Assembly (NCBI GenBank): GCA_051313645.2
Contig: JBNRSN020000001.1
Coordinates: 80,166,001 to 80,230,000, forward strand
Direction of reading: 5' to 3'
DNA: 64,000 nt
From: Centroscyllium fabricii
Lineage: Eukaryota
A program made the position numbers and the translations under genes. Under the pieces are notes generated by a model that was not told the DNA's origin, searched no databases, and saw only the letters and a program-made list of their open reading frames with translations. Position 1 is the stretch's first letter, and each line of letters begins with the position of its first letter. Below are positions 25,095 through 64,000 of the stretch, piece after piece.

Positions 25095-26110
25095 CTTGAC
25101 TATTCCAACGCTCCCCTGGCCGGCCTCCCATCTTGCACCCTACGTAAACTTGAGCTCATCCAAAACACTGCTGCCCCCGTGTCCTAACTCACACCCAGTC
25201 CCATTCACCCATCATCCCCTGTGCTCACTGCCCCGTGTCCTAACTCACACCCAGTCCCATTCACCCATCACCCCCTGTGCTCACTGCCCAGTGTCCTAAC
25301 TCACACCGAGTCCTGTTCACCCATCACCCCCTGTGCTCACTGCCCCGTGTCCTAACTTGCACCCAGTCCCGTTCACCCATCACCCCCTGTGCTCACTGCC
25401 CCATGTCCTAACTCGCACCAAGTCCCGTTCACCCATCACCCCCTGTGCTCACTGCCCCGTGTCCTAACTCACACCCAGTCCCGTTCACCCATAACCCCCG
25501 TGCTCGCTGCCCCGTGTCCTAACTCACACCCACTCCCGTTCACCCATCACCCCCTGTGCTCACTGCCCTGTGTCCTAACTCACACCCAGTCCCGTTCGCC
25601 CCTTACCCTCCATGTTCACTGCCCCGTGTCCTAACTCGCACCGAATCCCGTTCACCCATCACCCCCTGTGCTCGCTGACCTACATTGGCTCCCGGTTAAG
25701 CAATGCCTCAATTTCAAAACTCTCATCCTTGTTTTCAAATTCCTCCATGGCCTCGCCCCTCCCCTATCTCTGTAATCTCCTCCAGCCCCACAATTCCCTG
25801 AGAAATTTGCGCTCCTCTAATTCTGGCATCTTGCCCATCCCCGATTTCCATCGCTCCACCATTGGTGGCCGTGCTTTCAGCTGCCTGGGCCCCAAGCTCT
25901 GGAATTCCATCCCTAAACCTCTCCATCTCTCTCTCCTCCTTTACGACGCTCCATAAAACCGACCTCTTTGACCAAGCTTTTGGTCAACTGTCCTAATATC
26001 TCCTTATGCGGCTCGGTGTCAAATTTTTTGTCTTACAATACTCCTGTGAAACGCCTTGGGACGTTTTACTACGTTAAAGGTGCTATATAAATACAAGTTG
26101 TTATTGTTGT
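25095..26110 (+). mobile_element. L2 LINE 3' fragment containing a minisatellite
   Basis: RLDYSNA...IQN...PITPVL..LHWLP reading, with an L2 tail at 26040-26110. Confidence 0.85.
25172..25676 (+). repeat. 56-bp minisatellite, about 9 copies
   Basis: Unit TGCCCCGTGTCCTAACTCACACCCAGTCCCGTTCACCCATCACCCCCTGTGCTCAC, starting at 25229, 25285, 25341, 25397, 25453 and onward. Confidence 0.95.
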
Positions 26111-33593: not shown

Positions 33594-35049
33594 AAGCATT
33601 TATGTAGTTATCCCTGAAATGCATTTTTGCTATTCACCTCAGCTACTCCCTGTGGTGGCCAGTTCCGCATTCTCACCAGAAGGTTATAATGATCAGTGAT
33701 GTTTATTTGACAGATAGATGTTGGTTGTTTCTGACAGCAGTCCCTGGATGTTTGATTTTGGTCAATAAATGACATTTCTACAATACTTGGGTGACTCATT
33801 TTAGTCCCTATCTCTCTGAGCCCCAGTGACAGAAGGCAGGCTCTTTATCTCGCTAAGCTCTTGCTAACCGCAGACTGATTCCATTTTTTACAGACTCTTG
33901 TTTCAGATGTTTTGCTTAAAAGGTCATCAATCACTGTTAATCCTGTCCTGCAAAAAAAAGATTGCACACAAGTACTGGACCCGTTGCCGTCTCCCCGAAG
34001 CAATGTTAATTACCTGAGAAATGTCAGGATGTGAGCAAAGCCAGTCAGACTGAAATTGCCACTAGAACTTTCCATTCAGCCCATGTAGATCCTTTGCAAA
34101 AATATTATATTTCTCACGACTGTACTTTTAAGGCCTAGGTAAGATATTGCATGCCACTTGATTTTCCTGCCTTGCAAATGAATGGAAGGAAAGAATAGTA
34201 TTCTTTACTAGAATGGTACCAGCGATGAGGGTGTTTCCTAGCTGATGGGGTTACAGGGAACTGGCAGGGAAGTGGACGTGAGTCTAAGTTCGGATCAGCC
34301 ATGATCCTATTAAATGGCGGAGCAGGCCCGAGGGGCCGTATGGCCGACTCCTGCTCCTACTTCTTATGTTCTTATTGGCCCAGAAATTGCAGTGGAGCCT
34401 TTCATGCGGGTGCAGTGCTGCTAGTTGCACTTACCCAGCGCATCTGCCGGTTTGCTTTTTTGCACTCAGTCATTCCAGTTAGCCCAGCTTGTCAGAGCTC
34501 CGTGCGAGCTCCCTGGGCAACTGAACGGCGTAATTAGTGCGAGATGGCTTTTGAGACCACGTGATTGGCAGGGAGCCAATCAGTGGAAGCAATCCTCCGT
34601 TCAAAACTTCCACTGAGAAATCTGTGCAAGTTTTGAAAGGAGAGATTACCCAAAAGACATCTAAACTCAAAAATAAAATTTTATAAACACCACATTTTTT
34701 TAACATTACCCCAACTAACATAAATAACCTATTTTAAAGAAAAAATAAAAAATTACAGAAAAATCTTTCATCTTCTAACAGGCCTAAAAAAATACTTACC
34801 TTGTGGCGGCACGCCCACTGGGACACCGAATCCGCCACGGGAACTCCGCGGAGCAGAGCCCCGCTCATCCGGGTGATGCGACGACGTCACCACGTCTGCC
34901 TGCGTGATGACGTCACCAACGGTGGGCAGTTTAAATAAGCTTGTTGCGAGTGGTTCACTCTCTTTCCTGTTTAACTCTTATGCATTAAACAAGTGTTTTC
35001 TCTAGCTCTCTGGCTCACGCGTGGTTTCTAGGCCTTGCTGGCACTACAG

Positions 35050-35061
35050 TGGTGACCCCGA
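35050..35061 (+). promoter_or_regulatory. Primer binding site, tRNA-Trp
   Basis: TGGTGACCCCGA is complementary to the tRNA-Trp 3' end (...UCGGGGUCACCA) and lies 1 nt after the LTR. Confidence 0.85.
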
Positions 35062-35139
35062 ATTGGAACGACTTCCAAAGAAAAAAAGCTGCCGCAGGAT
35101 CAAGGATCACCAGCCAAAGAACATTTTAAAACAGAAAAC

Positions 35140-38100
35140 ATGGCAAGAGCAAGGAACCAAGCTCCACGAACCCAAGGACTTGGCCAGAACTTCGGGCACA
35201 GACTAACTCTACCGGAGTTCTGGGAGCAACGGCCAGCGGCCTGGTTCATGTGCATCAAAACCAGCTGCCGCACACATGGCATCCAGGGGGACGACCGCTA
35301 CGACCTGGTGTTCTCAGCCCTACCGCAATCGACGATCGATCGGATGTGGTCAAAAATACAGCGTGTGCCCACTACAGGCAGGTACGAATCCCTTAAGGCC
35401 GTGCTCATAATTTTTTTTACCCCCTCTCAATTCGAGCGCGACTGCCAGCTCCTTGACCTCCCCGAACTCGGGGACGCAGACCCATCGGACCTTTTAGGTC
35501 AGATGCAAGCGCTCACCGCCAATCCCGCCTCCCTGTTCCGCACCATTTTCCTCCTCAAACTAACCCGCTCCATCAGGCCGGCCTTGGCGGCCCTCGGCCA
35601 GCGGAGCGACGACGAGCTCGCTGAGGAGGCCGACAGGCTCATGGAGGCAGAGCGCACCCGCTCAACCACGTGCGACCCTAACTCCGCATCTATAGAGCGC
35701 AACCAATCGCCCCCCAGGCCTAACTTCATGCCTGAACCTAGGGCCCCGCACCCACCCAGGCAACCGCGTCCCTCTAACACCGGCTGGTGCTACTACCACA
35801 CGCGGTACGATAGTAAAGCGCACCGCTGCGTCCAGCCATGCGCATTTAAGCTACGGCCCACCTCAGCCCCCACTATGTCTGTAGGACACACAGGAGCACT
35901 GCTCTTTGTTACAGACAGCAGCACAGGCCTCCAATTTCTCTGCGACACAGGCGCACAGCACAGCATCGTGCCAGCCTCCCCTGCAGAAACCAAACAAGGC
36001 ACCCGGGGCCCGCCACTCGCAGCGGCCAACGGCTCCAACATCAAAACGTACGGCACCCGCAAGCTCACGATTACGCTTGCAAGCCACACGTACACCTGGG
36101 ACTTTGTCACAGCCCAGGTCACTTCACCCCTCCTCGGAGCAGATTTCCTCTGCGCCTACGGCCTGCTGGTCGATATGACCCGGCGCCGCTTGGTTAACAT
36201 GAATAACAGGTCGACCATCCCATGCTTCACAGGGCCCGCACTCCCGGTCCACGCGGCCGCCCAATGCCGCTCTCGGAACTCCGATGCCTACGGCACACTC
36301 CTAGCAGAGTTCCCCGCCCTAACCAACCCCACGTTCACCGCCCGCTGGGCCAAACACGGGGTAGAGCATTTTATAACTACCACAGGCCCTCCTGTCCATG
36401 CCCATGCCCGCAGGCTCGACCCGGCCAAACAGGAGATCGCGCGCACCGAGTTCCGCACCATGGAGCAACTCGGTATAATCCGCCGCTCCAACAGCCCCTG
36501 GGCCTCTCCTCTCCACATAGCCCCCAAGCCGGGCGGGGGTTGGCGCCCCTGCGGCGACTACCGCCGCCTAAACAACGCCACTACCCCGGATAGGTACCCC
36601 GTACCCCACATCCAGGATTTTTCCGCCAGACTAGCGGGCTGCACGATCTTCTCCAAGATCGACCTGATGCGTGGCTACCACCAGGTTCCGGTGCACCCGG
36701 CGGACATTCCTAAAACGGCCGTTATCACTCCCTTTGGACTCTTCGAGTTTCTCAGGATGCCCTTTGGCCTTAAAAACGCGGCCCAGGCCTTCCAGCGCCT
36801 CATGGACTCGGTCCTACGGGACTTGAAGTTCATTTTCGTCTACTTAGATGACATCCTCGTGGCCAGCACCTCCCCCCAAGAACACCTCCTGCACCTCAGG
36901 ACCCTGTTCCAGCGCCTGGTCGAACACGGCCTAATATTAAGCCCTACCAAGTGTAAATTCGGCCTCCAAACCATTGATTTTCTCGGCCACCGCATTTCCC
37001 AAACCGGGGCCATACCCCTGCCCTCCAAGGTGCAGGCGGTCCAGGAATTTCCCCGCCCGCACTCCATTAAAGGGCTGCAGGAATTTCTGGGGATGGTCAA
37101 TTTTTATAACCGCTTTATCCCGGGAGCAGCCGCTCTCATGGCCCCCTTATACCAGGCCACTCGCGGGCAGTCTAACAAGGCTGCGGTCGAGTGGACGGCC
37201 GACGCCGCCACCGCCTTCACCGCAACTAAAACAGCCCTAGCTAACGCCACCCTCCTAGCCCACCCTAGGCCCAACGCCAGAGTAGCCCTCACCACCGACG
37301 CCTCCGACCACGCGGTCAGGGCCGTATTTGAGCAGTGGACCGGCAACTCGTGGCAGCCCCTGGCCTTTTTCAGCCGGCAACTCCGGCCCCCAGAGGTCAA
37401 GTACAGTGCCTTCGATAGGGAGCTAATCACTCTCCATCTGGCAGTGCGACATTTTCGCTTCCTCCTGGAGGGCCGCCACTTCACAGCCTTCGTCGACCAT
37501 AAGCCACTCACCTTCGCGATGGCTAAGGTTGCCGAACCCTGGTCGGCCAGGCAGCAGTGCCAACTCGCGGCCGTGTCGGAATTTACGACCGACATTCAGC
37601 ATATCTCCGGCCGCGACAACGTGGTCGCTGACTGCCTCTCACGCCCCACCATTAACGCCGCCCAAATGGCGGTCGATTACGCCCAGCTGGCCGCTGACCA
37701 GCTGGCCGACCCCGACCTGCTCAACTCAGCAGCAAATCTCCCCGGCCTCCACTTGGCCAATATCGCACACGGCCCCGCTGCCACCGTTGTCTGCTGCGAC
37801 GTGTCCCTGCCGCAGCCCAGGCCCGTTGACCCCACGCTTGGAGGCGACACATTTTCAAGACCCTCCATGACCTGTCCCACCCCGGCACCCGCGCGTCCAT
37901 TAAACTTATCTCGGCCCGGTTCATATGGCGCGGCCTGCGCAAAGACGTCAGCGCCTGGGCCAACTCCTGCATTGCCTGCCAGCGCTCCAAAGTGCATAAG
38001 CACATCAGGGCACCGCTGGAAACATTTAAAGTGCCGGCCAGACGCTTTGACCACGTCCACATTGATCTCGTCGGGCCACTACCGCCATCCCGGGGCCACA

Positions 38101-38966
38101 CGCACGTAATGACCATGGTCGACCGCAACACTCGCTGGCCAGAAGCAGTCCCCCTCACTGCCACCGGCACCACGGACTTGGCCAGGGCGTTCATCGCCAC
38201 CTGGGTCGCCCGCTTCGGCGTGCCCACCGACATCACCTCCGACAGAGGACCCCAGTTCACGTCAGCACTATGGGCGGCCATCGCCCCCGACCTCGGGGTA
38301 ACCCTACATCGAACCACCGCATACCACCCACAAACTAACGGGCTCTGCGAACGGTTCCACCGCTCAATGAAGGCATCACTGCGAGCCACCCTCAAGGACA
38401 CGTCTTGGACCGACCGTCTCCCATGGGTTCTCCTCGGGCTGCGCTCGGCAGTTAAAGAGGACCTAAATGCCTCGGCAGCAGAACTCGTCTACGGCCAAGC
38501 CCTAACAGTGCCGGGCGAATTTTTAGCAGAACCAAACGCTCCCTGGTCAGCCGACCAGTACCTAAAAGACTTTGCCAACCCGGCACGAGCTTTCCAGCCA
38601 CTACCAGTGGCCCGGCATGGAGAGCCGGCAGCACGAGTGCCGGACGGCATCAAAAAGGCAAAATTCGTGTTCGTCCAGCGTGACGGACACCGATCTCCAC
38701 TACAGCCACCATACGATGGCCCCTATAGAGTGCTTCGGGCGGGAGCTAAAGCTTTCCAGCTTCAAATGGGCAACAGGACAGAAACTGTTACAATAGACCG
38801 GCTCAAGCCGGCACACGTTATAGCGGGCGAGACGACTGTCCCCGCACAACCACCGCAACGCGGACGCCCTCCCGCAACAACACCCGCCCACACTCTACCG
38901 CAGAACCACAAGCAACACACAACACGGGCCGGCCGCATCATCCGGCCACCCCAACGGCTCACATAG
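35140..38966 (+). pseudogene. Gag-Pol polyprotein with one 1-nt frameshift near 37830
   Basis: LPEFW...WF gag start, CYYH-X9-C-X3-C, FLCDTGA, RMPFGL, YLDD, TTDASD, DLVGPLP/SDRG/ERFH and YDGPY. The frameshift splits PVVPHAWRR, which is intact in the 62498..63934 copy. Confidence 0.93.
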
Positions 38967-39579
38967 ACTCTTTTTCTATTCCTCCCGGACGGATTCTGGG
39001 GGGGAGCTGTGTGGCGGCACGCCCACTGGGACACCGAATCCGCCACGGGAACTCCGTGGAGCAGAGCCCCGCTCATCCGAGTGACGCGACGACGTCACCA
39101 CGTCTGCCTGCGTGATGACGTCACCAACGGCGGGCAGTTTAAATAAGCTTGTTGCGAGTGGTTCACTCTCTTTCCTGTTTAACTCTTATGCATTAAACAA
39201 GTGTTTTCTCTAGCTCTCTGGCTCACGCGTGGTTTCTAGGCCTTGCTGGCGCTACAACCTGTCTTTAAAGTTAACAACAATTAAAAACCTGAAAAAACAA
39301 CACTTAAAATCAATAAAATACACACTTACCAGATAAAAACGGGTACTTACGACTCCTTTTTTCCAGCGTACAATCTTCTGCTCTTGGTCCATAGAAAAGC
39401 TTTAAAAAAAAGGAATGACTGAACGCACCCCGTAGTTCGATGATTCCTGCGAGAGCCATCGCAGGAACTCTGCCCCCCCTGCTGGCCGCCACAGGAAAGA
39501 CTGAAGCAGCACCTGAGCTCAAACGTGATATGGGCAGACTGCAATTTCTGGCCCAATATGTTCTTATGTTCAGTTAAGT

Positions 39580-46315: not shown

Positions 46316-47396
46316 AGAAACATAGAAACATAGAAGATAGGAGCAGGAGTAGGCCATTCGGCCCCTCGAGCCTGCTCCGCCATTCAATGCGATCATGGCT
46401 GATCATCCAAACTCAGTACCCTGTCCCTGCCTTCTCCCCACATCCCTTGAACCCTTTAGCCTTAAGAAATATATCCAACTCCTTCTTGAATATATTTAAT
46501 GAATTGGCCTCTACTGCCTTCTGTGGTAGAGAATTCCACTGGTTCACCACTCTCTGGGTGAAGAAATTCCTCCTCATCTCTGTTCTAAATGGCTTACCCC
46601 GTATCATTAGACTGTGACCCCTGGTTCTGGACTCCCCCACCATCTGGACCATCCTTCCTGCATCTAGTCTGTCCAGACATGTTAGAATTTTAAAGGTTTC
46701 GATGAGATCCCCTCTCATTCTTCTAAACTCCAATGAGTACAAGCCTAATCGACCCAATCGCTCCTCATACATCATTCCTGCCATCCCAGGTATCAGCCTG
46801 TTGAATCTTCGCTGCACTCCTTCCATGGCAAGAACATTCTTCCTTAGATAAGGTGACCAAAACTGTACACAATACTCAAGATGTGGTATAACTGCAGCAA
46901 GACATCCTTGTTCCTGTACTCAAACCCTCTCACTACGAAGGCCAACATACCATTTGCCTTCTTAACCGCCTGCTGCACCTGCATGCTTGCCTTCAGCGAC
47001 TGGTGCTCAAGGACACCCAGGTCTTGTTGCACTTCCCCTTCTCCTAATCTATTGCCATTCAGGTAATAATCTGCCTTCTTGTTTTTGACACCAAAGTAGA
47101 TAACCTTGCATTTATCCACATTATAGTGCATCTGCCATGCTTCTGCCCAATCACCCAACCTGTCCAAATCATACTGGAGTTTCTCAGCATCCTCCTCACA
47201 GCACACACGCCCACCCAGCTTTGTGTCGTCTGCAATCTTGGAGATATTACATCTAGTTCCCTCGTCTAGATCATTAATGTATATTGTGAATAGTTGGGGT
47301 CCAAGGACTGATCCCTGCAGTACCCCACTAGTCACTGCCTGCCACTCGGAAAAAGACCCGTTTATTCCAACTCTTTGCTTTCTGTCTGCCAACCAG
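46316..47396 (-). mobile_element. CR1 LINE, 5'-truncated
   Basis: ORFs 46844..47431 and 46413..46826 (QGSVLGP, ADDTKL, GEKAGTGY*), with the tail at 46316-46410. Confidence 0.93.
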
Positions 47397-47682
47397 TTCC
47401 CAGCACACACACCAGGTCCCAGCACACACACCAGGTCCTAGCACCCATACCAGGTCCCAGCACCCACACCAGGTCCCAGCACCCACACCAGGTCCCATCA
47501 CACACACCAGGTCCCATCACACACACCAGGTCCCATCACACACACCAGGTGCCAGCACACACACCAGGTCCCAGCACACACACACCAGCTCCCAGCACCC
47601 ACACCAGGTCCCAGCACCCTCACCAGGTCCCAGCACACATACCAGGTCCCAGCACACACACACCAGGTGCCAGCACACACAC
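47397..47682 (+). repeat. ~19-21-bp minisatellite (CCAGGTCCCAGCACACACA)n
   Basis: About 14 imperfect units abutting the CR1 5' truncation point. Confidence 0.92.
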
Positions 47683-48937
47683 CATGGAATTTCCACTCCA
47701 ACAACAACAACTTTTATTTATATTGCGCCTTTACCATAGTAACACGTCCCAAGGAGCTGCACAGGAGTATTTTAAGGGGAAAAAACCTTGACACCGATCC
47801 ACATGAGGATAGATTAGGACAGGTCACCAAAAGCTTGGGCAAAGAGGTCAGTATTAAGGAGCGTCTTAAAGGAGGAGAGAGAGGTAGCGAGGAGGAGTGG
47901 GTTAGACAGGGAATTCCAGAGCTTAGGGCCTTGTTGTTGACTGAAAGGGCGGTGGAAGCAGATTCAATAGTAACTTTCAAAAGGGAATTGGATAAATACT
48001 GGAAAAGGAGAAATGTGCCGGGCTGTGGGGAAAGAGCGGGGGGAGTGGGACTAATTGGAGAGAATCTTTCAAAGAGCCGGCACAGGCACGATGGGCCGAA
48101 TGGCCTCCTCCTGTGCTGTAGGATTGGTTCTGTGAATAGGAGGCCATTATTCCTCTTGTTGGGCAGGTTCCAGGGTAATTTTAATTTAAAACCCTCTTTT
48201 TATTCTGCGGTGGGGTTTATTTGATGTTGTAAAACTGTTTATCAAGCACTTTAAAAGACAGATAAATTAATTCGTTTGGAAGTTCTGTAACAAATAACAT
48301 ATAACTTTGTTCTTTTTGGAATTACAATTGCGTAGATTAAAACAATTTAGATTAGAGAACAGAGTTGAGCAATGATGTCAAATTTTGTCTGGTCCCCAAT
48401 TCTAATGCATTCATAAATTTATTGAATATAATAAGAATTGCACAGATAACCGGGCTTTACCTGTCCGGTTTATTTGTTGCATCAATATCTCTATCGTCAT
48501 TCTTACAACATTGATGCTTCTGACATCCTGCCTCCTATTCATAGAATCCTGCAGCACAGAAGGAGGCCATTCGGCCCATCGTGCCTGTGCCGGCTCTTTG
48601 AAAGATTCTCTCCAATTAGTCCCATTCCCCCTGCTCTTTCCCCAGAGCCCTGCACGTTTTTCTCTTCAAGTATTTCTCCAATTCCCTTTTGAAAGTTTCT
48701 ATTGAATCTGCTTCCCCCGCCCTTTCAGGCAGCGCATTCCAGATCACAACAACTCGCTGCGTAAAAACATTCTCCTCATCTCCCCTCTGGTTCTTTTGCC
48801 GATGATCTTCAATCTGTGTCCTCTGGTTACCGACCCTCCCGCCACTGGAAACAGTTTCTCCGCATTTACTCCATCAAAACCCCTCATGATTTTGAACACC
48901 TCTAGTAAATCTCCCCTTAACCTTCTCTGCTCTAACA

Positions 48938-51348: not shown

Positions 51349-51403
51349 ATTGTCAGTTTTACAGCATTCTTTGAACAGTACTCATTGTGATAGTGTAGCG
51401 CTT

Positions 51404-53115
51404 TGTAAGGAGCGTGCGCCGTATATTTTACTGTACGACTTGGGGTCCGTTACTGCCTTGCGCTAGCAGTCCGCTAGGCCTCGCGCAATAACCTCCTCCC
51501 CCGCGAGCGGTTCGAATCGCTCACTCTTTACGGTTCTAGACGCTGGACTTAGGTGCAGGAAGAGAGAGAGAGAGAGAGATATGGATACCGATTGGACTCA
51601 GATATTTTATACTCGAATAAAAGTTTGTAAAGTTGGAAGGTTTTTATTACACCAAGAGATATATTTACAGCAGTCAGGATAAAGGTTTATTACACCAAGA
51701 GATATATTTACAGCAGTTAGGTTGTATTTCATCAGAGTGACACAGTATGATACATCCACAACTGTTTCCCAAACAGATATATATAGGTACATACACAGAT
51801 AACTTATGGGATGGGGAACGCACGGCACAACGTAAATCGGGGCAATGACTCTATAAATACACCCCCTATAAACCACCCTTCCCTCTATTGCCTAGCTATG
51901 TCCAGGTGTGTAGGATCGAGGCACATGCTCACCACTCGGTAATACTCGGGATCTGCTACGAAGTTCCTCGCTTCTTCGGCTGCAGCGTCGGTCGTCACGT
52001 GGCTGTGGAAGATTCGGGAGTCCACTCGTTGTTTTCTCCCTTTGGGCGGCGGTCGCTCCTGCTCGGGCTGGTCCCGGACGGATTCCTCGAGGCTGCTCTA
52101 TCTCCTCGCACCAACCGCACCGTCTCCCTGGCTGAACCGGACCCTGGGGTATGCCGATCCTGCCCTCTCAAGCCGAACTGTAACGGGCTGCTAGCCTGAT
52201 TGTTCTCCCACTCTTCGAATGATGGTTTCTCTCGAGCCAACGGCAACCAGTCTTTTCTAACTCACTCACTTTGAATATTTGCTTCGCTAATGGGCCTCAG
52301 CAACTAACTACCTCACCGGCAATGGTTTTCCGATGCGATACTGCCCTGACCCAACTCTGCTGTCCTGCCAGAGCCTTCACCCTGCTTGCCCTGCGCCCAG
52401 AAAGCTGAACTGGAGTCTTCGAGAAAGACAGCCCACCCAAAGTCACTGCTAGACCTCACCGCTTCAAGAGGTCGCCTCCACGAGTCGATTCCAAGAGCCA
52501 AGAGATTCAAACCCCCCTCCTCCAGGGAGTCCGAGATGAAGAGAGATCGAACTGTGCAATGTCCTGCTAGTTATACCCCAAAGTCGAAATGCCTAATGTC
52601 TTTCCCATTAGAGCCTGTATTGTGTGTGGAAAGCGGTTACTGCACTCCTTTTGTCTAGCCAAGCCTGCCGGTAATAGTTTTGATGGTGGCTCTAACTTCT
52701 CCGGTTAGAGTCCCATTGTTTTCAAGGGTGCTAATCGCTTTCTGCTGGAAGGGTATACAATTTCTGTAGCTGGTTAAACGAGCCAGCTGCTTCGTTTTTG
52801 CAGTTGTTTTGGGTGTTTATTTAAACTGGGTGCATTTCTTTGTCGGGCTAATCGGTTTCTAAAAGGCAGGCTATCCATTTCCAGGTTTAACAGCGCCTTT
52901 ATGTCTGGTTTCTTCGCGGGCTTTTCGAGTTGAGTTTTAGTTTCGGTTTTGCACTATGCCATGTGGTCCGGCGGCCATCTTGGAGGCCCCTTTTCTCTGA
53001 TCAGGCCGCAGCCTGTCTTGTCTGTCATTGTCCAAATAAAAGAAAATGTGTATACTCCATCCTTCGTTTCTGGTCTTTGTGAATCCGATTTAACAGGGAA
53101 TATTGCGACCTTACA
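51404..53115 (-). repeat. 3' LTR (1712 bp)
   Basis: TGTAAGG...CCTTACA terminal inverted repeat; near-identical to 60519-62230. Confidence 0.97.
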
Positions 53116-53127
53116 GTCCCTCCTGTT
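53116..53127 (-). promoter_or_regulatory. Polypurine tract
   Basis: Minus strand AACAGGAGGGAC immediately precedes the 3' LTR. Confidence 0.7.
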
Positions 53128-53952
53128 GATTAGCATAACCCTGCTTAGCGAATCAATTAAGAAAGGTTGAGCAAGATTCCCGATTTTCCACACCTCAACT
53201 CTCCTGGTTACCTAAATTAACTCTTGCCCCATGACACATGCGGTTCCCATTCCCTTTAATCAACCTTGCATTGCCTTTACCCTGGGCAATCGTATATTTA
53301 CACCACCATGTCTTACACCTCCTGGTTCCTTCCACGTCTGCCAGGCCGATGCCTTCGTCTCCACCTGTTCACATCATTTATTAACTTGAAAGACATCACA
53401 CAACCATCCGGAACATATAAACACACACATTTCCCTTCACCAATCCCCCCATTTGTCCCCAAAGTTTGTACAGTGTTCTGGCGGTCTTCTGCAGCCACCA
53501 CCATCGGCTCGCTGGGATCTTCCTATCCCTCAACGGAAGTAAGTCCTTTTACCGATGATAGCGCCGGTCCTGGGTGCGATGGTCTTGATCCGGGGCACAT
53601 AAAACCAAGTCTCTCCACAAGCAGATTCCGACGTGCTGGGATGCTCCATTGGGTCCGTTCCCAGCCGTTCTTACTCCCCGGTGTGGCCCCGGCAGGCCAG
53701 TCCATCTTTGATGCCCGCACACGTCATCAGAATCCCCGCCTCTCTGGGTTCTGTAATCAAACAAAGGGGTTGCCGGCCTCCCAAGAGCGCCTGGCTGTGG
53801 TGAGATGTGCACGCCTCCTGGACAGATCCCATATTACCTAAACACTCCCCTTTACCTTTAACAAAAATACAAACTTAATCGGGCTACTCCCTTGACACTA
53901 CCAAACTTATTTTTTTCATTATATACAGTGCCGCCTCTCCCGGGCGGCCTAC

Positions 53953-56900
53953 CTATCCCCTGTCAGGGTCGTAGTGGGCCGCTCCCCGTGGCGGTGCCTT
54001 GCTGACCCTTCCCTTTGGTTCCCCGCAGCCTGTCGCTGCTTTAGATTCTCCGCAGCCTGGTGCTGCTTGTCGGGGGTGGATAATTATCCTTTTGCGGGGG
54101 CTTTTCCTGTTCCTGAGGGCATATGACGGTTCTGGCCAAGCTTTCCTGGGCGGGGGTACCCTTTCCGATCGACGGAGGGTGCCTTTAGGTACTGCTCCCT
54201 GGGCCGACGAACTGAGGACCGAGCCAGGTTGTGCTGCAGCCTGTGACTCCCTCACAGCTGCCAGCACCAACCCCTCTTCCTCCAGCTTCGCTTCCCAGGA
54301 ACCGAGAGCCCCCTGGGTCGACGACCTGAGGACCGGGCCAGGTCGTGCTACAGCCTGTGACCCCGTCACATCTGTCAGCATCGACGCTCCCTCCTCTCGC
54401 CTCGTCGACGAACTGAAGGCCGGGCCGGATCGTGCTGCAGCCTGTGACTCCTTCACAGCTGCCAGCACCGACCCTCCCTCCTTCAGCTTCGCTTCCCCGG
54501 GACTGGGATCTCTTGCGGCTTCTGACCTCACCTCACCTATCTCCTCAGGTGGTGAGTCTCCGCCCGCTATCCCTACCTCGTCGGCATTTGAGTCGAGAAC
54601 GGAACCCCCGTCCTCCGACCCCTCCTCCTCCCCTGTGATTGACTCTAGCACTGGGTCGCATAGGTCAATCAGGTCCAACCCTTGGTCGGGTTGGCCACTC
54701 GGATCCAACACTTGGTCGTGTTGGTCCATCGGATCCAACACTTGGTCGGGTTGGTCCGGCTCCTCCCCATCTGAATCCCACACAGCACGAGAGACCCTCC
54801 TCTCCTCCATCGGGGCCTCTCCTTTCACGCAGGCTACTTTACCTGCCTGCGCGACCTGTGGTCCTGCACTTGGCTGGGCGTTCCTACTCACAGGGCTTGC
54901 CCCTGTGGTCGACCCCTGCGTGCCCGACTTATACATTTTACATTGGTTTATATGGAACCACTTTGTGCGTCGGGGCACCTTCACCGCATAAACCATGGGG
55001 CTTGCCTTATCTACAATGCTGTAGGGCCCCATGTACAGTGGCTCTAAACTCCCGACCCGGGCATAGTTCCTCACCATGACCAGGTCTCCCACTTCCCATT
55101 CTTGCGTTCTTCGGGGCTCCAGCAACAGCTTGTTCCCCTGATGCTGTCTGCCCATGTTCCCTGCTGCCTGCTCGTGTACTCGCTTTAGGTGCTCGAACAG
55201 ATTTTGGGCAAACCTGTCCTTCTTTACCTCCTCGAGCTGTCCTTCCGTGAGCACCGGAGCTAGTACATGAGTGGGGGTACGCATGGCCCTTCCAGTTATT
55301 AGCTCGTGCGGGGAATATCCCGTACTTTTCGACTGGCTGGCCCTGATCCCCATGAGGATTAAAGGCAGGATCTCCGCCCATTTCTGGGGCGAGCCCATCG
55401 CCTCTTTCCTCAACCGTTCCTTAAGGGTACGGTTCATGCGCTCCACAATTCCTGACGACTGGGGGTTATGCGCTACGTGCCATTTCCCTTCAATGCCTAA
55501 GAGCATGAGGGTGTTCTGCATGACCTGGCCGGTGAAGTGACTCCCCTGGTCGGACTCCACAAAACGGGGAAGTCCCCACCGTGAGAACACCTCCCGGACC
55601 AAAATCCTGGCAGTACCTAAGGCCGTAGCCGTCCTACAGGGGAAAGCTTCTACCCATTTGGAGAACACGTCCACCAGGACGAGACAATATTTATAGCCTC
55701 CCTGGGCGGTGGGTAAGGGCCCTATATAGTCGACTTGGATCGACTGCCACGGTCCCTCCACCCTCCAGACGTGCCCCATCTGCGCTTTCCTTCTTTGGGG
55801 GTCTGGGTTGTTCGCAGCGCACACCAGGCAGCTGGCGCAGAACTCGCGGGCATCTTCCCTGAGTCCCGGCCACCACCCTGCCTGTTCCACCCGTTGCCAC
55901 GTAACCTCTGGCCCGGGGTGCCCTGCTCCTGGACCCTCGTGGGCCAATTGGAGAAATTCCCTCCTGTGCTGCTGCGGCACAACCCACTGTTCCTCCCTGA
56001 ACAACATACCCTCCTTAACGGAGAGGGTCGCCCTATTATATGGGCCCTCTACCTGCTTGTCCTCACTAATAGCTTTGAGGACAGCTTTTAAAACGGGATC
56101 CTGGTTTTGGACCGTTTTGAGATCCAAAGGCAAGGGAACCCTGGGGCGGTTCCCCTCCTTGTCCCGGATCGCTGCCACAGGTCCGGACCCGTAGGGGTCC
56201 CAGAAAGTGCCTTCACGAGCACCCTCCTTGGCCAGCGCATCCGCCCGCTGATTGCCTCCCCCACGTGGTTCCGTGGAAGAGTGAGCCTTCACCTTGTGGA
56301 TGAAGATCTCCCCTTCTTCCCCTACTGCCGCTAGGATCTTCTCCAACAAGGGCTTTACCGTTAATGGCCGCCCGTCCGCGGAAGTGTACCCGCGACGTGA
56401 CCATATGGCCAGATACTCCGTGCACGAGTTGCACGTAAACATACTATCAGAGCAAATTGTGTACGGGGTTGGGAAGATCTCGGGGTGGGTTACCACGTAC
56501 GCCACCGCCGACAGCTCGGCCTGCTGCGCGCTCATGGTGCGGGGAAGCTTAACCGCCAAGGCAATGTCTGCCGTAGGGTCAAAAATCCCGCAGCCCGTGA
56601 GTCGTTCGCCAGCCACCACCGTGCTGGAACCATCAACATAGATCTCGCGACCCGTGGGATGTATCCCGGCTCGCAGACCTATGTTCACCTCCCATACCCA
56701 CTCCACGGAACACCGATGGGTCGTTCCGGGGTACATCAAATTTGCTGCGAGCTTAGGCTCGCACAAACCCTCCACTTTTAAATCCATTTGGGACAACAGA
56801 AGAGTCCAGCGCGCAATTCTCGCGCTGCTCACGGTCCCATCCTTTATCCTCCCATCCAGAAGCATCCTGGTGGGCGTGTGGTGGGTGAGGAGAGTAATGG

Positions 56901-58593
56901 GAGAGGTTCCCGTGAAGATTAATGATCTCTTCACGGCCCAATGCGTGGCTAAGAGATGCCGTTCGCAGTTGGAGAACCCCCTCTCTACCTCCGTGAGTAC
57001 CCTTGAGGAATACACCACCGGTCGCAGCTTGCCGTGCCGCTCTTGGAGCAGCACCGCGCTCAAGCTGTCCTCGCCGGCTGCTACCTCCAGGGAAAACTCC
57101 TTCCCCCCCTCTATGGCCCCCAGGGCTGGCGCGGTTTGCAAGTCCCTTTTCAACTTTTCAAACGCCGCCTGGCAGCCCTCATCCATTGACCACCCAACTC
57201 CCTTATGTAAGAGTCGGAGCAGCGGAGCTGCTGTGGCTGCATAGTCCTCTATGAAGTCTCTGCAATAGCCGGTCAATCCCAAAAAGGACCTCACACCCTT
57301 TACGGTGGTCGGGATCGGTAGCTCCTGTACCGACTCCCTTCTGGCCTTATCTATGGCCCTTTCCCCCGCGCGGATGGTCAGACCCAGAAATTTTACTTCT
57401 GTCTGGCCAATCCGTGCCTTCTTCGGGTTTATTTTAAAACCCTTCCTAGCCAGTAATTCCAGCAGCTCGCCTAGCAATGGCAAGTGCTCATCCCTCGTGT
57501 CCGTGAACAGGAGTAAGTCGTCCACATACTGCACTATTTGATTGGGCTGACTAAACTCCTTTAAACTCCCTGCCATACATTGGTGGAAAATACTGGGGCT
57601 GTTGTGGAAGCCTTGCGGCAAACAATTCCACGTGTACTGCTGCCCTTTAAACGTAAAGGCAAACTTGTACTGATCCTCCCTCCGCAGCGGGATGGACCAA
57701 AACCCGTTGGAAATATCCAACACCGTAAACACCGTGGCGGAAGCGGGGATGCTCCCGATCAGGTCGGCAACTGCTGCCACCGTGGGCGCGCAGGCGGGGA
57801 TGTTACTGTTGAGGACCCGATAATCCACCGTGGCTCTCCATGAGTTGTCTGGCTTCCGTACGGGCCACAACGGAGAGTTCACATGGGTGGCTATCGGCCT
57901 CAACACGCCCTGCCGCACCAGTGAAGACATCGCTGTCTCCAGATCGGACTCCGCTTCCTTAGGGAAGTTATACTGTTTCTGGGGTCGGGACATGGGATCC
58001 CCCTGTACGCTAACCTCAAACCCTAAGACCCTCCCGCAATCGTGCTTGTGGGTCGCAAAGGCGTTTATATTACACGTTACGGCCGCCTGCATGTCGGCCG
58101 GAACCCCTTTGGACAAACTATCGAGGTCGTAACCTCCGGACGGCTTCATGGTGCATAGGGTCCCCTTCTCTTCTTCCTCCCCTATGACCACAACTTCACC
58201 TCTTCCACTTTCGGCTGCCCATAAACAGTGGTTCCTTAAGTCGATCATGATCCCGTGTGCTCCCAGAAAATCTGCTCCTACTATACCTCTGCCACCTCCT
58301 TCTTCCCATTTCAGTAGGATGCACTCCCAAGTGGTGTGGAGCGCTCCTAACTGAATGGAGAGTGGCCTAGAGCGCGCGCCCCCCTGTTCCTTGCCCGTAA
58401 ACCCTGCCAATGCAAAAGGGACTCCGGTGGACATTGGGGAATTAAACGGCTTCTCTGTATGGATCACGGTGCATGAGGCCCCCGTATCCAACAGATAATT
58501 CCCCTCCTGTCTCTCCACCTCCATTTCCACCAGAGGTCTCCTCCATGCATCATAACGGAGCGGACACAGGTAAATGGGCAGCGCGGGTCTTAG
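53953..58593 (-). CDS. pol: Pol: protease, RT, RNase H-like tether, RNase H, integrase with GPY/F, long C-terminal extension
   Basis: LLDTGAS; LPQGFHNSP; YVDDLL; degenerate RH; YVDGSS/AELSA/SDS/GNQRAD; HHCC, DYIGPLP, SDQG, VERMN; YMGPY. The frame is open from the codon right after the gag stop. Confidence 0.95.
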   Translation of the reverse strand, partial: LRPALPIYLCPLRYDAWRRPLVEMEVERQEGNYLLDTGASCTVIHTEKPFNSPMSTGVPFALAGFTGKEQGGARSRPLSIQLGALHTTWECILLKWEEGGGRGIVGADFLGAHGIMIDLRNHCLWAAESGRGEVVVIGEEEEKGTLCTMKPSGGYDLDSLSKGVPADMQAAVTCNINAFATHKHDCGRVLGFEVSVQGDPMSRPQKQYNFPKEAESDLETAMSSLVRQGVLRPIATHVNSPLWPVRKPDNSWRATVDYRVLNSNIPACAPTVAAVADLIGSIPASATVFTVLDISNGFWSIPLRREDQYKFAFTFKGQQYTWNCLPQGFHNSPSIFHQCMAGSLKEFSQPNQIVQYVDDLLLFTDTRDEHLPLLGELLELLARKGFKINPKKARIGQTEVKFLGLTIRAGERAIDKARRESVQELPIPTTVKGVRSFLGLTGYCRDFIEDYAATAAPLLRLLHKGVGWSMDEGCQAAFEKLKRDLQTAPALGAIEGGKEFSLEVAAGEDSLSAVLLQERHGKLRPVVYSSRVLTEVERGFSNCERHLLATHWAVKRSLIFTGTSPITLLTHHTPTRMLLDGRIKDGTVSSARIARWTLLLSQMDLKVEGLCEPKLAANLMYPGTTHRCSVEWVWEVNIGLRAGIHPTGREIYVDGSSTVVAGERLTGCGIFDPTADIALAVKLPRTMSAQQAELSAVAYVVTHPEIFPTPYTICSDSMFTCNSCTEYLAIWSRRGYTSADGRPLTVKPLLEKILAAVGEEGEIFIHKVKAHSSTEPRGGGNQRADALAKEGAREGTFWDPYGSGPVAAIRDKEGNRPRVPLPLDLKTVQNQDPVLKAVLKAISEDKQVEGPYNRATLSVKEGMLFREEQWVVPQQHRREFLQLAHEGPGAGHPGPEVTWQRVEQAGWWPGLREDAREFCASCLVCAANNPDPQRRKAQMGHVWRVEGPWQSIQVDYIGPLPTAQGGYKYCLVLVDVFSKWVEAFPCRTATALGTARILVREVFSRWGLPRFVESDQGSHFTGQVMQNTLMLLGIEGKWHVAHNPQSSGIVERMNRTLKERLRKEAMGSPQKWAEILPLILMGIRASQSKSTGYSPHELITGRAMRTPTHVLAPVLTEGQLEEVKKDRFAQNLFEHLKRVHEQAAGNMGRQHQGNKLLLEPRRTQEWEVGDLVMVRNYARVGSLEPLYMGPYSIVDKASPMVYAVKVPRRTKWFHINQCKMYKSGTQGSTTGASPVSRNAQPSAGPQVAQAGKVACVKGEAPMEERRVSRAVWDSDGEEPDQPDQVLDPMDQHDQVLDPSGQPDQGLDLIDLCDPVLESITGEEEGSEDGGSVLDSNADEVGIAGGDSPPEEIGEVRSEAARDPSPGEAKLKEGGSVLAAVKESQAAARSGPAFSSSTRREEGASMLTDVTGSQAVARPGPVLRSSTQGALGSWEAKLEEEGLVLAAVRESQAAAQPGSVLSSSAQGAVPKGTLRRSERVPPPRKAWPEPSYALRNRKSPRKRIIIHPRQAAPGCGESKAATGCGEPKGRVSKAPPRGAAHYDPDRG

Positions 58594-60516
58594 TCATTGG
58601 GTTTCCACGTGAGGGGCTGCGGTGCCTGCGGAACCGGTGGCCACCGCTGCCTTCCCCTGGGAAGCCATATACAACTTCATGGCCCCCAGCGTGGACTCAA
58701 TCGTCTCGGGACTTAAGGTTGCCCCGGCACCTCCTGTGGGAGCGGGTGCTCGGGTTGGGGCTACCTTCCCCTGGGAAGTCATATAAAACTTCATGGCTTC
58801 CAGCATGGACTCAATTGTTTCGGGACTTAGAGTGGCGCCGGCACCTCCTGTGGGAGTGGGTGCTCGGGCTGGGGCTGCGGGAGCTCTTTCCTTGACCTCC
58901 CTCCACGGGGCTCTACAGTCTCTGCGCCAGTGGCCTGCCTTCCCGCATCTATGACATGTAGACTGCCCCGGGTTGCCCCCCTCCTGATACCACTCTCTCT
59001 GCGCTGGGGCGTTTGCGTTAGTCGCATACACCTTCCCCTTATCGCAATGCATCACCGAACTTCTGGTATTTTTGTACCCAACCGTGAGTCGGTTGAGGAC
59101 CGTCTCCTCTGTGGTTAGAGCATCGGTGGGGTCAAACCACACCTTCGCCTGCTCTCTAACGGCGGGTAGGCTGTTGGCAACGATACACCGGAGCCACTGG
59201 GCTCTCCCGGCATCGCGCAGAACAGCCCGTGCAGGTACATCTGGGCAGCTGCGCTGATACACAGGCCACAGCCTCCCGGCGAAAACCCGTGGGGGTTCTC
59301 CCTCCATCTGCACGGTCCTACCCAGCCTTACAAACGGACCTTCATCGTCCATCCCTAATATTTCTAGGACCTCGTCCCGCAGGTCGTTATAACAATTCTC
59401 CCCCCTTTTGCTCTCGTCGGAGAGACACTGAAGGATAGAGCTATCCAACGAGAAAAGCAACATCCTGGCTTGCTCCCCTTCGTCACAGCCGTTAATTGCT
59501 GCGGCCTGTTCGACCTCCCTAAAATGCAGGGACGGATCGCCTGCTGCGGACAGCTTCTTGAAATGCCCTATCATACTCCTTATCTGTTGCGAGCTATGGG
59601 GCACTATAACCTCATTCAGGACGGGCCCGGGATCCCCAGCCGCAGTGTCGGGACCCCGCCTCGTCTCTCGAACCGGACACATGGGTGCCGGGTCTGGATT
59701 CCCCACTTTGGGAACCTTTGCCGCCACCTCCTCTCTGTCCCCTTTCTCCCATGCTTGCGTATAGTGGGGTGATCGCGCGGGGAGCGCGGGGGCTGGTGCC
59801 TCCGGCGCCCTCCTCCTTAACTTTGGCTTCGGGGGTTCCTGAGCTACCTTTACCTCACCCACCGATGGGTCGATGAGGCACACCAGACCATTTGACTTGT
59901 TCAGGGCCTCCCTGAGGTCCTGAATCTCCTTTAAACAGGCGCTATGATCGGCGTCCTCATATTTGGCCTCGAGGGACATTTTGTATGCTGCCCTCATCCC
60001 CAGTAAATCCTCCTCCTGTGCCTTCAATTGGCCACTTAGGCGGACGCACCTTTCCCTGAGCTTCCCTTCACTTGACATGGCCTCTACGACTTGTCTTTCT
60101 AGGAGCTCAACCCTAGCTTCGTGGCGGTTGGTCTTCACCTGGCGCTCATTATTTAGAGCCTCTAGCGCGGTGATTAACCGCTGCCCCCCTGAGACCTTTT
60201 CCTCCACTTCTAAGACCAACCCTTTTATCTGCGCGGTCTGCGCCGCAATCACCTGGTCCGAAAGCTGGACCTGCCTTTTATAACACATAAGCCATACGGC
60301 TTTCTCTACGGCCTTTTTATGCCCCTTGCTACCCGTCCAACGGATAGCTGCATCCAGTGGGCGTTTGTCTGCCAACAGGTCCCCAATCCACTGCTTTGTC
60401 AAATTAACTTTGCTGAATACATAATCAGCAATCCTTTCCTCCATTACGCTTCTTTTATTCAAAGCTGAGTCCAATAGATCTCTCTCCTGCTGCCAGCGTC
60501 CTGCCGCGGTCGCCAT
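58594..60516 (-). CDS. gag: Gag (640 aa): coiled-coil N-terminus, capsid-like region, single CCHC knuckle
   Basis: CHRCGKAGHWRRDC zinc knuckle; position between PBS and pol. Confidence 0.92.
   Translation of the reverse strand: MATAAGRWQQERDLLDSALNKRSVMEERIADYVFSKVNLTKQWIGDLLADKRPLDAAIRWTGSKGHKKAVEKAVWLMCYKRQVQLSDQVIAAQTAQIKGLVLEVEEKVSGGQRLITALEALNNERQVKTNRHEARVELLERQVVEAMSSEGKLRERCVRLSGQLKAQEEDLLGMRAAYKMSLEAKYEDADHSACLKEIQDLREALNKSNGLVCLIDPSVGEVKVAQEPPKPKLRRRAPEAPAPALPARSPHYTQAWEKGDREEVAAKVPKVGNPDPAPMCPVRETRRGPDTAAGDPGPVLNEVIVPHSSQQIRSMIGHFKKLSAAGDPSLHFREVEQAAAINGCDEGEQARMLLFSLDSSILQCLSDESKRGENCYNDLRDEVLEILGMDDEGPFVRLGRTVQMEGEPPRVFAGRLWPVYQRSCPDVPARAVLRDAGRAQWLRCIVANSLPAVREQAKVWFDPTDALTTEETVLNRLTVGYKNTRSSVMHCDKGKVYATNANAPAQREWYQEGGNPGQSTCHRCGKAGHWRRDCRAPWREVKERAPAAPARAPTPTGGAGATLSPETIESMLEAMKFYMTSQGKVAPTRAPAPTGGAGATLSPETIESTLGAMKLYMASQGKAAVATGSAGTAAPHVETQ
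60498..60515 (-). promoter_or_regulatory. Primer binding site, tRNA-Arg(TCG)
   Basis: The plus strand GTCCTGCCGCGGTCGCCA equals the 18-nt 3' end of vertebrate tRNA-Arg-TCG as I recall it. It lies 3 nt from the 5' LTR. Confidence 0.85.
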
Positions 60517-60518
60517 TC

Positions 60519-62230
60519 TGTAAGGAGCGTGCGCCGTATATTTTACTGTACGACTTGGGGTCCGTTACTGCCTTGCGCTAGCAGTCCGCTAGGCCTCGCG
60601 CAATAACCTCCTCCCCCGCGAGCGGTTCGAATCGCTCACTCTTTACGGTTCTAGACGTTGGACTTAGGTGCAGGAAGAGAGAGAGAGAGAGAGATATGGA
60701 TACCGATTGGACTCAGATATTTTATACTCGAATAAAAGTTTGTAAAGTTGGAAGGTTTTTATTACACCAAGAGATATATTTACAGCAGTCAGGATAAAGG
60801 TTTATTACACCAAGAGATATATTTACAGCAGTTAGGTTGTATTTCATCAGAGTGACACAGTATGATACATCCACAACTGTTTCCCAAACAGATATATATA
60901 GGTACATACACAGATAACTTATGGGATGGGGAACGCACGGCACAACGTAAATCGGGGCAATGACTCTATAAATACACCCCCTATAAACCACCCTTCCCTC
61001 TATTGCCTAGCTATGTCCAGGTGTGTAGGATCGAGGCACATGCTCACCACTCGGTAATACTCGGGATCTGCTACAAAGTTCCTCGCTTCTTCGGCTGCAG
61101 CGTCGGTCGTCACGTGGCTGTGGAAGATTCGGGAGTCCACTCGTTGTTTTCTCCCTTTGGGCGGCGGTCGCTCCTGCTCGGGCTGGTCCCGGACGGATTC
61201 CTCGAGGCTGCTCTATCTCCTCGCACCAACCGCACCGTCTCCCTGGCTGAACCGGACCCTGGGGTATGCCGATCCTGCCCTCTCAAGCCGAACTGTAACG
61301 GGCTGCTAGCCTGATTGTTCTCCCACTCTTCGAATGATGGTTTCTCTCGAGCCAACGGCAACCAGTCTTTTCTAACTCACTCACTTTGAATATTTGCTTC
61401 GCTAATGGGCCTCAGCAACTAACTACCTCACCGGCAATGGTTTTCCGATGCGATACTGCCCTGACCCAACTCTGCTGTCCTGCCAGAGCCTTCACCCTGC
61501 TTGCCCTGCGCCCAGAAAGCTGAACTGGAGTCTTCGAGAAAGACAGCCCACCCAAAGTCACTGCTAGACCTCACCGCTTCAAGAGGTCGCCTCCACGAGT
61601 CGATTCCAAGAGCCAAGAGATTCAAACCCCCCTCCTCCAGGGAGTCCAAGATGAAGAGAGATCGAACTGTGCAATGTCCTGCTAGTTATACCCCAAAGTC
61701 GAAATGCCTAATGTCTTTCCCATTAGAGCCTGTATTGTGTGTGGAAAGCGGTTACTGCACTCCTTTTGTCTAGCCAAGCCTGCCGGTAATAGTTTTGATG
61801 GTGGCTCTAACTTCTCCGGTTAGAGTCCCATTGTTTTCAAGGGTGCTAATCGCTTTCTGCTGGAAGGGTATACAATTTCTGTAGCTGGTTAAACGAGCCA
61901 GCTGCTTCGTTTTTGCAGTTGTTTTGGGTGTTTATTTAAACTGGGTGCATTTCTTTGTCGGGCTAATCGGTTTCTAAAAGGCAGGCTATCCATTTCCAGG
62001 TTTAACAGCGCCTTTATGTCTGGTTTCTTCGCAGGCTTTTCGAGTTGAGTTTTAGTTTCGGTTTTGCACTATGCCATGTGGTCCGGCGGCCATCTTGGAG
62101 GCCCCTTTTCTCTGATCAGGCCGCAGCCTGTCTTGTCTGTCATTGTCCAAATAAAAGAAAATGTGTATACTCCATCCTTCGTTTCTGGTCTTTGTGAATC
62201 CGATTTAACAGGGAATATTGCGACCTTACA
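60519..62230 (-). repeat. 5' LTR (1712 bp)
   Basis: Direct repeat of 51404-53115, followed on the minus strand by the PBS. Confidence 0.97.
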
Positions 62231-62234
62231 GCTT

Positions 62235-64000
62235 GCAGGACCCAAGAACCACACAGGAGCCGGAGAGACAGATAACACTTGTTTAATTAACACTACATAG
62301 CAAGAAAGAGACTGAACCACGAGGAGCAGGCTTATTTAAACTGCCCGCCTAGTGACCTCATCACACCGAGAGACGTGGTGATGTCATCGCGTCACCCGGT
62401 GGGCGGGGCTATGCCCCGCAGCATTCCCAAGGCGGATTCGCCAGCCGGCGTACCGCCACACAGCTCCCCCCAGAATCCGTCCGAGAGGAAAAAGAGTCTA
62501 TGTGAGGCGTTGTGGTGGCCGTAAGATGCGGCTGGCACATGTCGTGCATTGCTCCTGGTTCTGCGGTGGAGTGTGGGCGGGTGTTGGTGCGGGAGGGCGT
62601 CCGCGTTGAGGTGGTTGGGCGGGGACTGTCACGTCGCCCGCTATTACGTGTGCCGGTTTCAGCCGGTCGATTGAGATAGTTTCTGTCCGATTGCCCAGCT
62701 GTAGCTGAAAAGCTTTGGATCCCGCCCGAAGCACTCTGTAGGGGCCGTCATAAGGCGGCCGTAGAGGTGAACGGTGGGCATCGTGCCGGACAAACACGTA
62801 CTTTGCGTGCTTGATGCTGTCCGGTACACGTGCCGCCGGCTCTCCGTGCCGGGCCACCGGTAAGGGTGTGAACGCTCGTGCCGGGTTGGCAAAGTCCTTG
62901 AGGAACTGGTCGGCCGACCAGGGAGCGTTTGATTCAGCGAGGAACTCGCCCGGCACTCTTAAAGTCTGGCCGTAGACGAGTTCCGCTGCTGAGGCGTGCA
63001 AATCTTCTTTGGCCGCCGAGCGTACCCAAGGAAGACGGTCTGTCCATGATGCCTCTTTGAGGCAGGCCCGCAGGGATGCTTTCATGGAGTGGTGGAACCT
63101 TTCGCAGAGCCCGTTAGCTTGTGGGTGGTACGCGGTGGTTTGATGCAGGGTCACCCCGAGGTCGCGGGCGATGGCCGCCCATAGTGCCGACGTAAATTGG
63201 GGACCTCTGTCCGACGTGATGTCGGTGGGCACGCCGAAACGGGCGACCCAAGTGGCGATGGACGCCCTGGCCAAGTCCGTGGTGTTGGTAGCAACCAGGG
63301 GGACTGCTTCTGGCCAGCGAGTGTTGCGGTCGACCATGGTCATGACGTGTGTGTGACCCCGGGATGGCGGCAGTGGTCCGACGAGATCGACGTGGACGTG
63401 GTCGAAGCGTCTGGCTGGCACGGTAAATGTTTCCAGCGGGGCTTTAATGTGCTTGTGCACTTTGGCCCGCTGGCAGGCAATGCAGGCGTTGGTCCAGGCG
63501 CGGACGTCTTTGCGTAGGCCGCGCCACACGAAACGGGCCGAAATTAGTTTAATGGAGGCGCGGGTGCCGGGGTGGGACAGGCCATGGAGGGTCTTGAAAA
63601 TGTGCCGCCTCCATGCGTGGGGGACGACGGGTCTGGTCTGCGGTAATGATACGTCGCAGCAGACTACGGTGGCCGCGGGGCCATGTGCGATGTTGGCCAA
63701 GCGTAGGCCAGGGAGGTTTTCTGCTGGGTCGAGCAGGTCTGGGTCTGCCAGCTGGTCCGCTGCCAGCTTGGCGTAGTCGACCGCCATTTGGGTGGCATTA
63801 ATTGTGGGACGTGACAGGCAGTCAGCAACCACGTTGTCGCGGCCGGAGATGTGTTGGATGTCGGTAGTGAACTCCGACACGGCTGCGAGTTGGCGCTGCT
63901 GCCTGGCCGACCAGGGTTCAGCGATCTTAGCCATTGCAAATATGAGCGGCTTATGATCGACGAAAGCTGTGAAGGGACGGCCCTCCAGGAGGAAGTGAAA
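62235..64000 (-). mobile_element. Second CsRn1-like Gypsy element: RNase H end, integrase, PPT and 3' LTR (62235-62460, last 10 bp at 51394-51403)
   Basis: ORF 62498..63934 is highly similar to the 37519-38966 region. PPT CTGGGGGGAGCTG precedes an LTR starting TGTGGCGG. The element continues past the window edge. Confidence 0.93.

Follow-up and report, generated by a model that had tools for sequence, protein, structure and literature searches.

Reading through the stop codon of gag is an established route to Gag-Pol in Moloney murine leukaemia virus (MoMLV) (PMC8310308), and a 2026 review states that gammaretroviruses are the only retroviruses in which it has experimental verification (PMC13517186). 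Type II readthrough signals consist of the hexanucleotides UGACUA or UGACGG, the former listed in the review only for alpha- and triatoviruses; a downstream structure is described there as conditionally required, and UGACUAG gives at least ~1.3% readthrough (PMC13517186). Human genes with UGA-CUAG show readthrough of ~1.5–17% (PMC9841425). UGA also occurs at the gag-pol junctions of aquatic retroviruses, as UGAAGA in SSSV (salmon swim bladder sarcoma virus), UGACGA in zebrafish endogenous retrovirus (ZFERV) and UGAAGU in a Rhinella marina endogenous retrovirus (PMC13517186), and XtERV-S has the arrangement gag-TGA-pol, for which suppression of the stop was deduced (PMC8278194). Here we analysed a 64,000-nt stretch of DNA from Centroscyllium fabricii (the window; contig JBNRSN020000001.1, 80,166,001 to 80,230,000) that contains, on its minus strand, an endogenous retrovirus (ERV) whose gag and pol share one frame across a UGA-CUA junction and which probably makes Gag-Pol by programmed readthrough.

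The open reading frames (ORFs) and the features at their junction are as follows, in window positions:

58594..60516, minus strand: gag ORF of 640 codons, counting from the first ATG (stop to stop, 60564-58594)
58591..58596, minus strand: gag stop UGA plus the 3' codon CUA, the type II readthrough hexanucleotide UGACUA
58525..58593, minus strand: the 23 open codons that follow the stop and precede the first ATG, holding the protease N-terminal WRRPLV
53953..58593, minus strand: pol ORF, 1,546 codons without an internal stop, in the gag frame
58375..58585, minus strand: predicted candidate extended stem, in which +9 to ~+62 pairs with ~+169 to +219

Across the junction the minus strand reads GAA ACC CAA TGA CTA AGA CCC, with TGA at 58596-58594. 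The initial annotation had placed this stop in frame with pol, which we reproduced: the 640-codon gag and the 1,546-codon pol lie in one frame. It is the single in-frame stop in 2,186 gag and pol codons, at the Gag/protease boundary. The two remaining frames are shut by four and three stops within 300 nt past the junction, and the 204 nt upstream of it hold no slippery heptamer of the form X XXY YYZ. CTA accounts for 20 of the 2,186 codons (0.9%), and CTA or CGG for 43 (2.0%); because these codons are scarce in gag and pol, a nonsense mutation arising at random would seldom precede one of them.

Protease coding begins 5' of the first ATG, so Pol needs a bypass of the stop. The motif WRRPLV, at residues 17–22 past the stop, aligns to WKRPLV of HIV-1 protease and to the 'RP' segment of related proteases, which upholds an earlier identification of the RP motif as a protease N-terminal element. 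The 21 codons described at the same time as leading to the pol start are indeed open but end at a GTG (58530), and no ATG appears in the frame until codon 24 (58524), inside the protease. With the 23 codons before this ATG, the Pfam RVP match scores 24.2 bits; without them it scores 15.5, which is below the cut-off of 20.7. In the annotation of most close relatives, Pol begins at an internal Met. A single-sequence AlphaFold model of the protease was uninformative (predicted local distance difference test score, 32) and was not used. Given the motif before the ATG, the closed alternative frames and the missing slippery heptamer, a full protease needs continuous translation from gag, or a splice that a crude acceptor scan did not locate.

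Related copies retain the stop. Among 24 public contig runs listed, 17 contain at least half of the sampled words; four (X1, X16, X18 and X20) were compared, of which X18 does not reach the junction and the other three cover it. X20, presumed to be an RNA run, was not counted as a sign of expression. Record 12 of X16 covers 58462-58762 with two differences (58717 and 58720), both away from the junction, so the UGACUA hexamer is unchanged there. Loose alignment ends, 18 of the 65 being listed, revealed two diverged subfamilies. The first, seen in X1 (six records) and X16 (one record), has its last five to six gag codons altered (gag end PSEATK or PPEVTK vs PHVETQ in the ERV), and the alignment continues through the stop. 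The second, seen in two X20 records, is remoter: of 30 nt spanning the junction, 12 are shared, nine of them in one run over CAA-TGA-C; this run is in register and is followed by CAT CAG (UGA-CAU), so UGA-C, and not CUA, is the invariant part. None of the 40 differences listed, out of 144, falls at the stop. Synonymous changes make up 16 of the 17 listed on the pol side and 15 of the 23 on the gag side, and both pol-side differences before the first ATG are synonymous; coding constraint thus extends past the stop.

A more distant comparison comes from proteins. The sole Gag homologue found among 8,000 candidates scored was from the skate Rhinoraja longicauda (60% identity), and three of the four members of this skate Gag cluster terminate at the same residue when compared at the protein level (…ATGSPGARGALDIPQ vs …ATGSAGTAAPHVETQ); the fourth, which is truncated, ends earlier. 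Scans of viral contigs and metagenome contigs yielded no related locus. Judged from these sequences, the junction stop is real and conserved. Conservation of TGACTA in other copies, proposed in the initial annotation as a check, was found for the stop itself (in the intact X16 contig, both diverged subfamilies and the skate Gag ends) but not for an invariant CUA.

Ten junctions of the 24 lokiretrovirus entries in Dataset S1 of PMC7947760 were also read, by eye and at the DNA level. An in-frame TGA-CTA was present in seven of them (Loki-Bsp, Loki-Ofa, Loki-Pyo, Loki-Sau, Loki-Dcl, Loki-Lro and Loki-Cne); in Loki-Bsp the frame holds until an apparent 1-nt slip ~40 codons on, and the Loki-Tfu junction contains an ambiguous base. 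All four TGACTAGG matches in the supplement text covered are gag ends. The other 14 entries include several whose annotation is a fused gag-pol and two without the junction. A search of the supplement for DTG codons gave mostly chance matches, and none of the terms readthrough, stop codon or frameshift is used anywhere in the main text of that paper.

Taken together, we consider it probable that programmed UGA readthrough yields Gag-Pol in this element. Most ribosomes on the genomic RNA would terminate at the UGA and release Gag, and a minority would insert an amino acid there and proceed into pol, since termination is inefficient at a UGA with C as the next base (here CUA). The protease would excise itself from Gag-Pol, and the outcome would be a high Gag to Pol ratio. 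We infer readthrough along with its efficiency, the inserted residue, protease processing and any role of a downstream stem. The earlier proposal of programmed readthrough rather than a nonsense mutation is supported by the stop in diverged relatives and by the protease coding 5' of the first ATG; the accompanying view of UGA-CUA as a leaky context stands as far as UGACUA is a type II hexamer demonstrated to be leaky in alphaviruses, but must allow for the UGA-CAU variant.

Several observations weigh against readthrough. UGA-CAU of the X20 subfamily is not a type II context, and the ERV junction continues as CUAA rather than the stronger CUAG; in OPRL1, changing the G of CUAG lowered readthrough by more than half (PMC9841425). 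The junction of Tca2 alone gave no readthrough in a yeast reporter (PMC2194720). Among the lokiretrovirus junctions, in Loki-Pfl and Loki-Str a sense codon stands ahead of the same CTA and one of the ten is ambiguous (PMC7947760), and a coelacanth gene model (P0007) passes unbroken from a Gag-like part into the protease. With 40 of 144 differences and 18 of 65 loose ends listed, there is room for a minority of copies with a sense codon; in addition, X1 may be the window's own species, and our interpretation of loose ends presumes that local alignments end on matches. Folding the 150 nt 3' of the stop, suggested earlier as a check, gave an unremarkable result (z = -0.73), and variants in the region of a longer predicted stem, detailed below, included no compensatory change.

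The type II criterion includes a 3' stimulatory stem beginning ~8–12 nt past the stop. No local hairpin was found in windows of 50–150 nt from the stop (z = +0.67 to -0.87), the 70-nt window ranking 106th of 185. The candidate extended stem emerges only on folding ~230 nt, where most pairs have p > 0.9 and z is -3.4; its predicted spacer of 8 nt equals the MoMLV spacing (PMC13517186). The 230-nt window is not exceptional (rank 17 of 55 in the element), and the eight variants in this region comprise five unpaired positions, one pair kept and two pairs broken. We treat the long-range stem as a candidate only, without covariation support. A search of Rfam over 51400-62240 gave no matches (E ≤ 1). 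Separately, a strong local hairpin is predicted within protease coding at 58368-58299 (minus strand), 225–295 nt past the stop (z = -4.06; 0 of 200 shuffles); a window overlapping it ranks fourth of 185, and of two variants there one keeps its pair and one lies in the loop.

We rank readthrough above separate production of Pol, followed by a nonsense mutation and then by other kinds of recoding. Separate production, which we hold to be unlikely, would make the conserved UGA the true gag terminator, with Pol translated from an mRNA of its own, spliced or begun internally, or else through reinitiation; foamy viruses are a model for this and Tca2 a partial one. Conservation of the stop is equally compatible with this, but the C after the stop in every copy read would be left unexplained. 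Precedents exist, as spumaviruses start pol separately (PMC8278194) and the Tca2 junction contains a cryptic promoter and did not work when placed in a readthrough reporter (PMC2194720). In the ERV, however, pol has no ATG 5' of the protease core, and a start at the first ATG would drop the conserved protease element. A pyrimidine-rich stretch does lie 3' of the stop, yet a crude acceptor scan over 58800-58401 (YAG after at least 11 pyrimidines in 15) gave candidates only at 58772, 5' of the stop, and 58405, 3' of the catalytic DTG.

That the stop is a nonsense mutation (CpG decay, for instance), confined to this copy or to a non-autonomous subfamily, is largely refuted and very improbable. 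Apart from it the copy is undecayed (CpG observed/expected, 0.71; no further stop), the stop is kept despite diverged flanks, the skate Gag at 60% identity ends at the same residue and changes in pol are biased to synonymous ones. In its favour are the sense codons at the same place in two of the ten published lokiretrovirus junctions, implying a fused frame in distant relatives, and the 104 differences beyond the 40 listed. Least credible of all is a frameshift, hop or selenocysteine insertion at the UGA: UGA-adjacent frameshifting and selenocysteine decoding occur elsewhere (PMC8310308), but here pol is in the gag frame, both alternative frames are closed, a slippery heptamer was not found and the element has no Rfam match at E ≤ 1.

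The element that carries the proposed readthrough junction spans 62230-51404 and is flanked on both sides by a 4-bp target-site duplication, AAGC. Its features outside gag and pol are:

60519..62230, minus strand: 5' long terminal repeat (LTR), 1,712 nt, TG...CA
60498..60515, minus strand: primer-binding site (PBS), starting TGGCG, 3 nt past the LTR
53116..53952, minus strand: 3' region, ending in a short purine tract
51404..53115, minus strand: 3' LTR, 1,712 nt

The LTR pair differs at four sites, all transitions (0.23% divergence), and the copy is young, env-less and endogenous. It has the LTRs, the PBS and the order gag, protease, reverse transcriptase (RT), tether, RNase H and integrase that mark the Retroviridae type. 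Gag has a helical N-terminal part, a CCHC zinc knuckle (zf-CCHC match) and a C-terminal 114-nt duplication, and pol encodes protease (DTG), RT (YVDD), two RNase H domains (the tether and a second one) and integrase (H2C2, rve and SH3-like). In this copy the interval from pol to the 3' LTR holds no sense ORF of at least 100 codons, a profile search for env remnants not having been made; env was presumably lost secondarily.

Further details of the element were noted. The LTRs (62230-60519 and 53115-51404) are unusually long, with TATA-like and AATAAA motifs only near LTR positions 1330–1510. The first gag ATG (60516) overlaps the PBS directly after the LTR, and the skate Gag proteins likewise begin at the corresponding Met (MATTKGHWQQ vs MATAAGRWQQ), with an open stretch of 24 codons up to the next Met that is equal in length in the skate proteins and the ERV gag. 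We take the PBS to match the 3' end of a vertebrate tRNA-Arg(UCG). The duplication near the gag C-terminus is in tandem at 58863-58636 (minus strand), with 88 of 100 nt identical, and is single copy in the skate Gag. After integrase, pol continues into an open, low-complexity C-terminal tail of ~300 codons (54900-53953, minus strand), which is acidic with Ser/Ala-rich repeats and has no Pfam match.

Elsewhere in the window, a separate Ty3/gypsy element lies at 34802-39256 on the plus strand, with ~250-nt LTRs that are 98% identical, a fused gag-protease-RT and a frame break before integrase. The 3' part of a second copy of this family occupies 62500-64000 on the minus strand (82–89% identical) and ends ~0.15–0.25 kb upstream of the ERV 5' LTR. 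Tandem arrays are found at 25104-25736 (56-nt unit), 47354-47697 (19-nt unit) and 13568-13891 (45-nt unit), along with many dispersed repeats resembling short and long interspersed nuclear elements.

To place the ERV, we built a main tree from RT plus tether of 37 hand-picked rows, its references being other than foamy virus, ERV-L and class II, and a quick tree of 74 rows from which 13 near-duplicates and rows without the RT start had been excluded. By its RT the ERV sits with retroviruses and not with Ty3/gypsy, and in the 37-row tree it lies on the retrovirus side of a branch with 100/99 support, within an unresolved grade at the base and outside class I; the 74-row tree agrees. Its nearest Pol relatives are unnamed or 'NYNRIN-like' proteins of coelacanth, frogs and turtle. 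The best-scoring named virus is snakehead retrovirus (SnRV; row P0158, identified through a matching labelled RT stretch), at 371 bits vs 266 for walleye epidermal hyperplasia virus 1 and up to 325 for lokiretrovirus-like rows. A clade of the basal grade with SnRV, a group named after the tree had been seen, was neither recovered nor rejected (approximately unbiased (AU) test, p = 0.07). SnRV-like ERVs are known from one cartilaginous fish, the elephant shark, for example CmiERV lineage I (PMC4422223). We place the ERV in the deep-branching grade of dual-RNase H retroviruses, with SnRV the nearest named virus by score.

Two other assignments were rejected. A lokiretrovirus identity was first suggested by the dual RNase H and the 'NYNRIN-like' names, but the tree separates the ERV from lokiretroviruses (100/99; AU p = 0.003), with the lokiretrovirus anchors (P0014, P0167, P0171 and P0191) assigned by eye from the PMC7947760 supplement and by clustering; nor was a Mononegavirales-like env found. 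Membership of the gamma/epsilon group (class I) is contradicted by an RT outside class I and a junction that is not UAG.

More broadly, it is possible, and we advance it only tentatively, that UGA-CUA readthrough, of type II as in alphaviruses, is a widespread and old Gag-Pol route in the deepest retroviruses, shared by lokiretroviruses and a little-described env-less ERV lineage of cartilaginous fish; it may predate UAG-pseudoknot and frameshift systems, and the extended stem from 8 nt past the stop may tune it. The UGA-CUA junction of the ERV, together with those at seven of the ten lokiretrovirus junctions read, would bring another class of signal, a second one, into retroviral recoding, and it bears on the way in which the Gag to Pol ratio was set in the ancestral retrovirus. 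Annotation pipelines may label such elements as broken or shorten their protease, as with the Pol relatives annotated from an internal Met.

Finally, we compared the ERV with known recoding systems. MoMLV, as well as walleye dermal sarcoma virus, likewise has one in-frame stop that separates the zinc knuckle from the protease DTG, with pol in the gag frame (PMC13517186). Gamma- and epsilonretroviruses differ in using UAG, with a type III context and a required H-type pseudoknot in MoMLV, whereas the ERV has UGA-CUA and lies outside class I. This use of UAG had been noted before; what that contrast missed is the precedent for retroviral UGA junctions in SSSV, ZFERV, the toad ERV and XtERV-S. 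In these four, gag-UGA-pol is in frame as in the ERV, and readthrough is a deduction in every case; none of the hexamers of the first three is UGACUA, unlike the ERV, and XtERV-S differs in its YIDD motif, dUTPase, env and lack of a zinc knuckle (PMC8278194). SnRV differs in its UAGGGC junction (PMC13517186) and in having env. Lokiretroviruses share the dual RNase H and, in seven of the ten junctions read, TGA-CTA, but their env is paramyxovirus-like, and none of 6 chondrichthyan genomes yielded a lokiretrovirus (Wang and Han 2021). Tca2 of Candida albicans has an in-frame gag-UGA-pol as in the ERV and belongs to a different family (Ty1/copia). In the alphavirus nsP3-nsP4 opal codon the same UGACUA governs extension into the polymerase, and sense-codon variants occur there too (PMC13517186); alphaviruses are, however, unrelated RNA viruses with an experimentally supported stem-loop, whereas the ERV stem is predicted. 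In a literature search whose coverage largely left out subscription papers, Repbase notes and most supplements, we found no report of UGA-CUA between gag and pol in retroviruses or lokiretroviruses. The strategy is a known one; what is new is the signal class, UGA-CUA, and the lineage in which it occurs.

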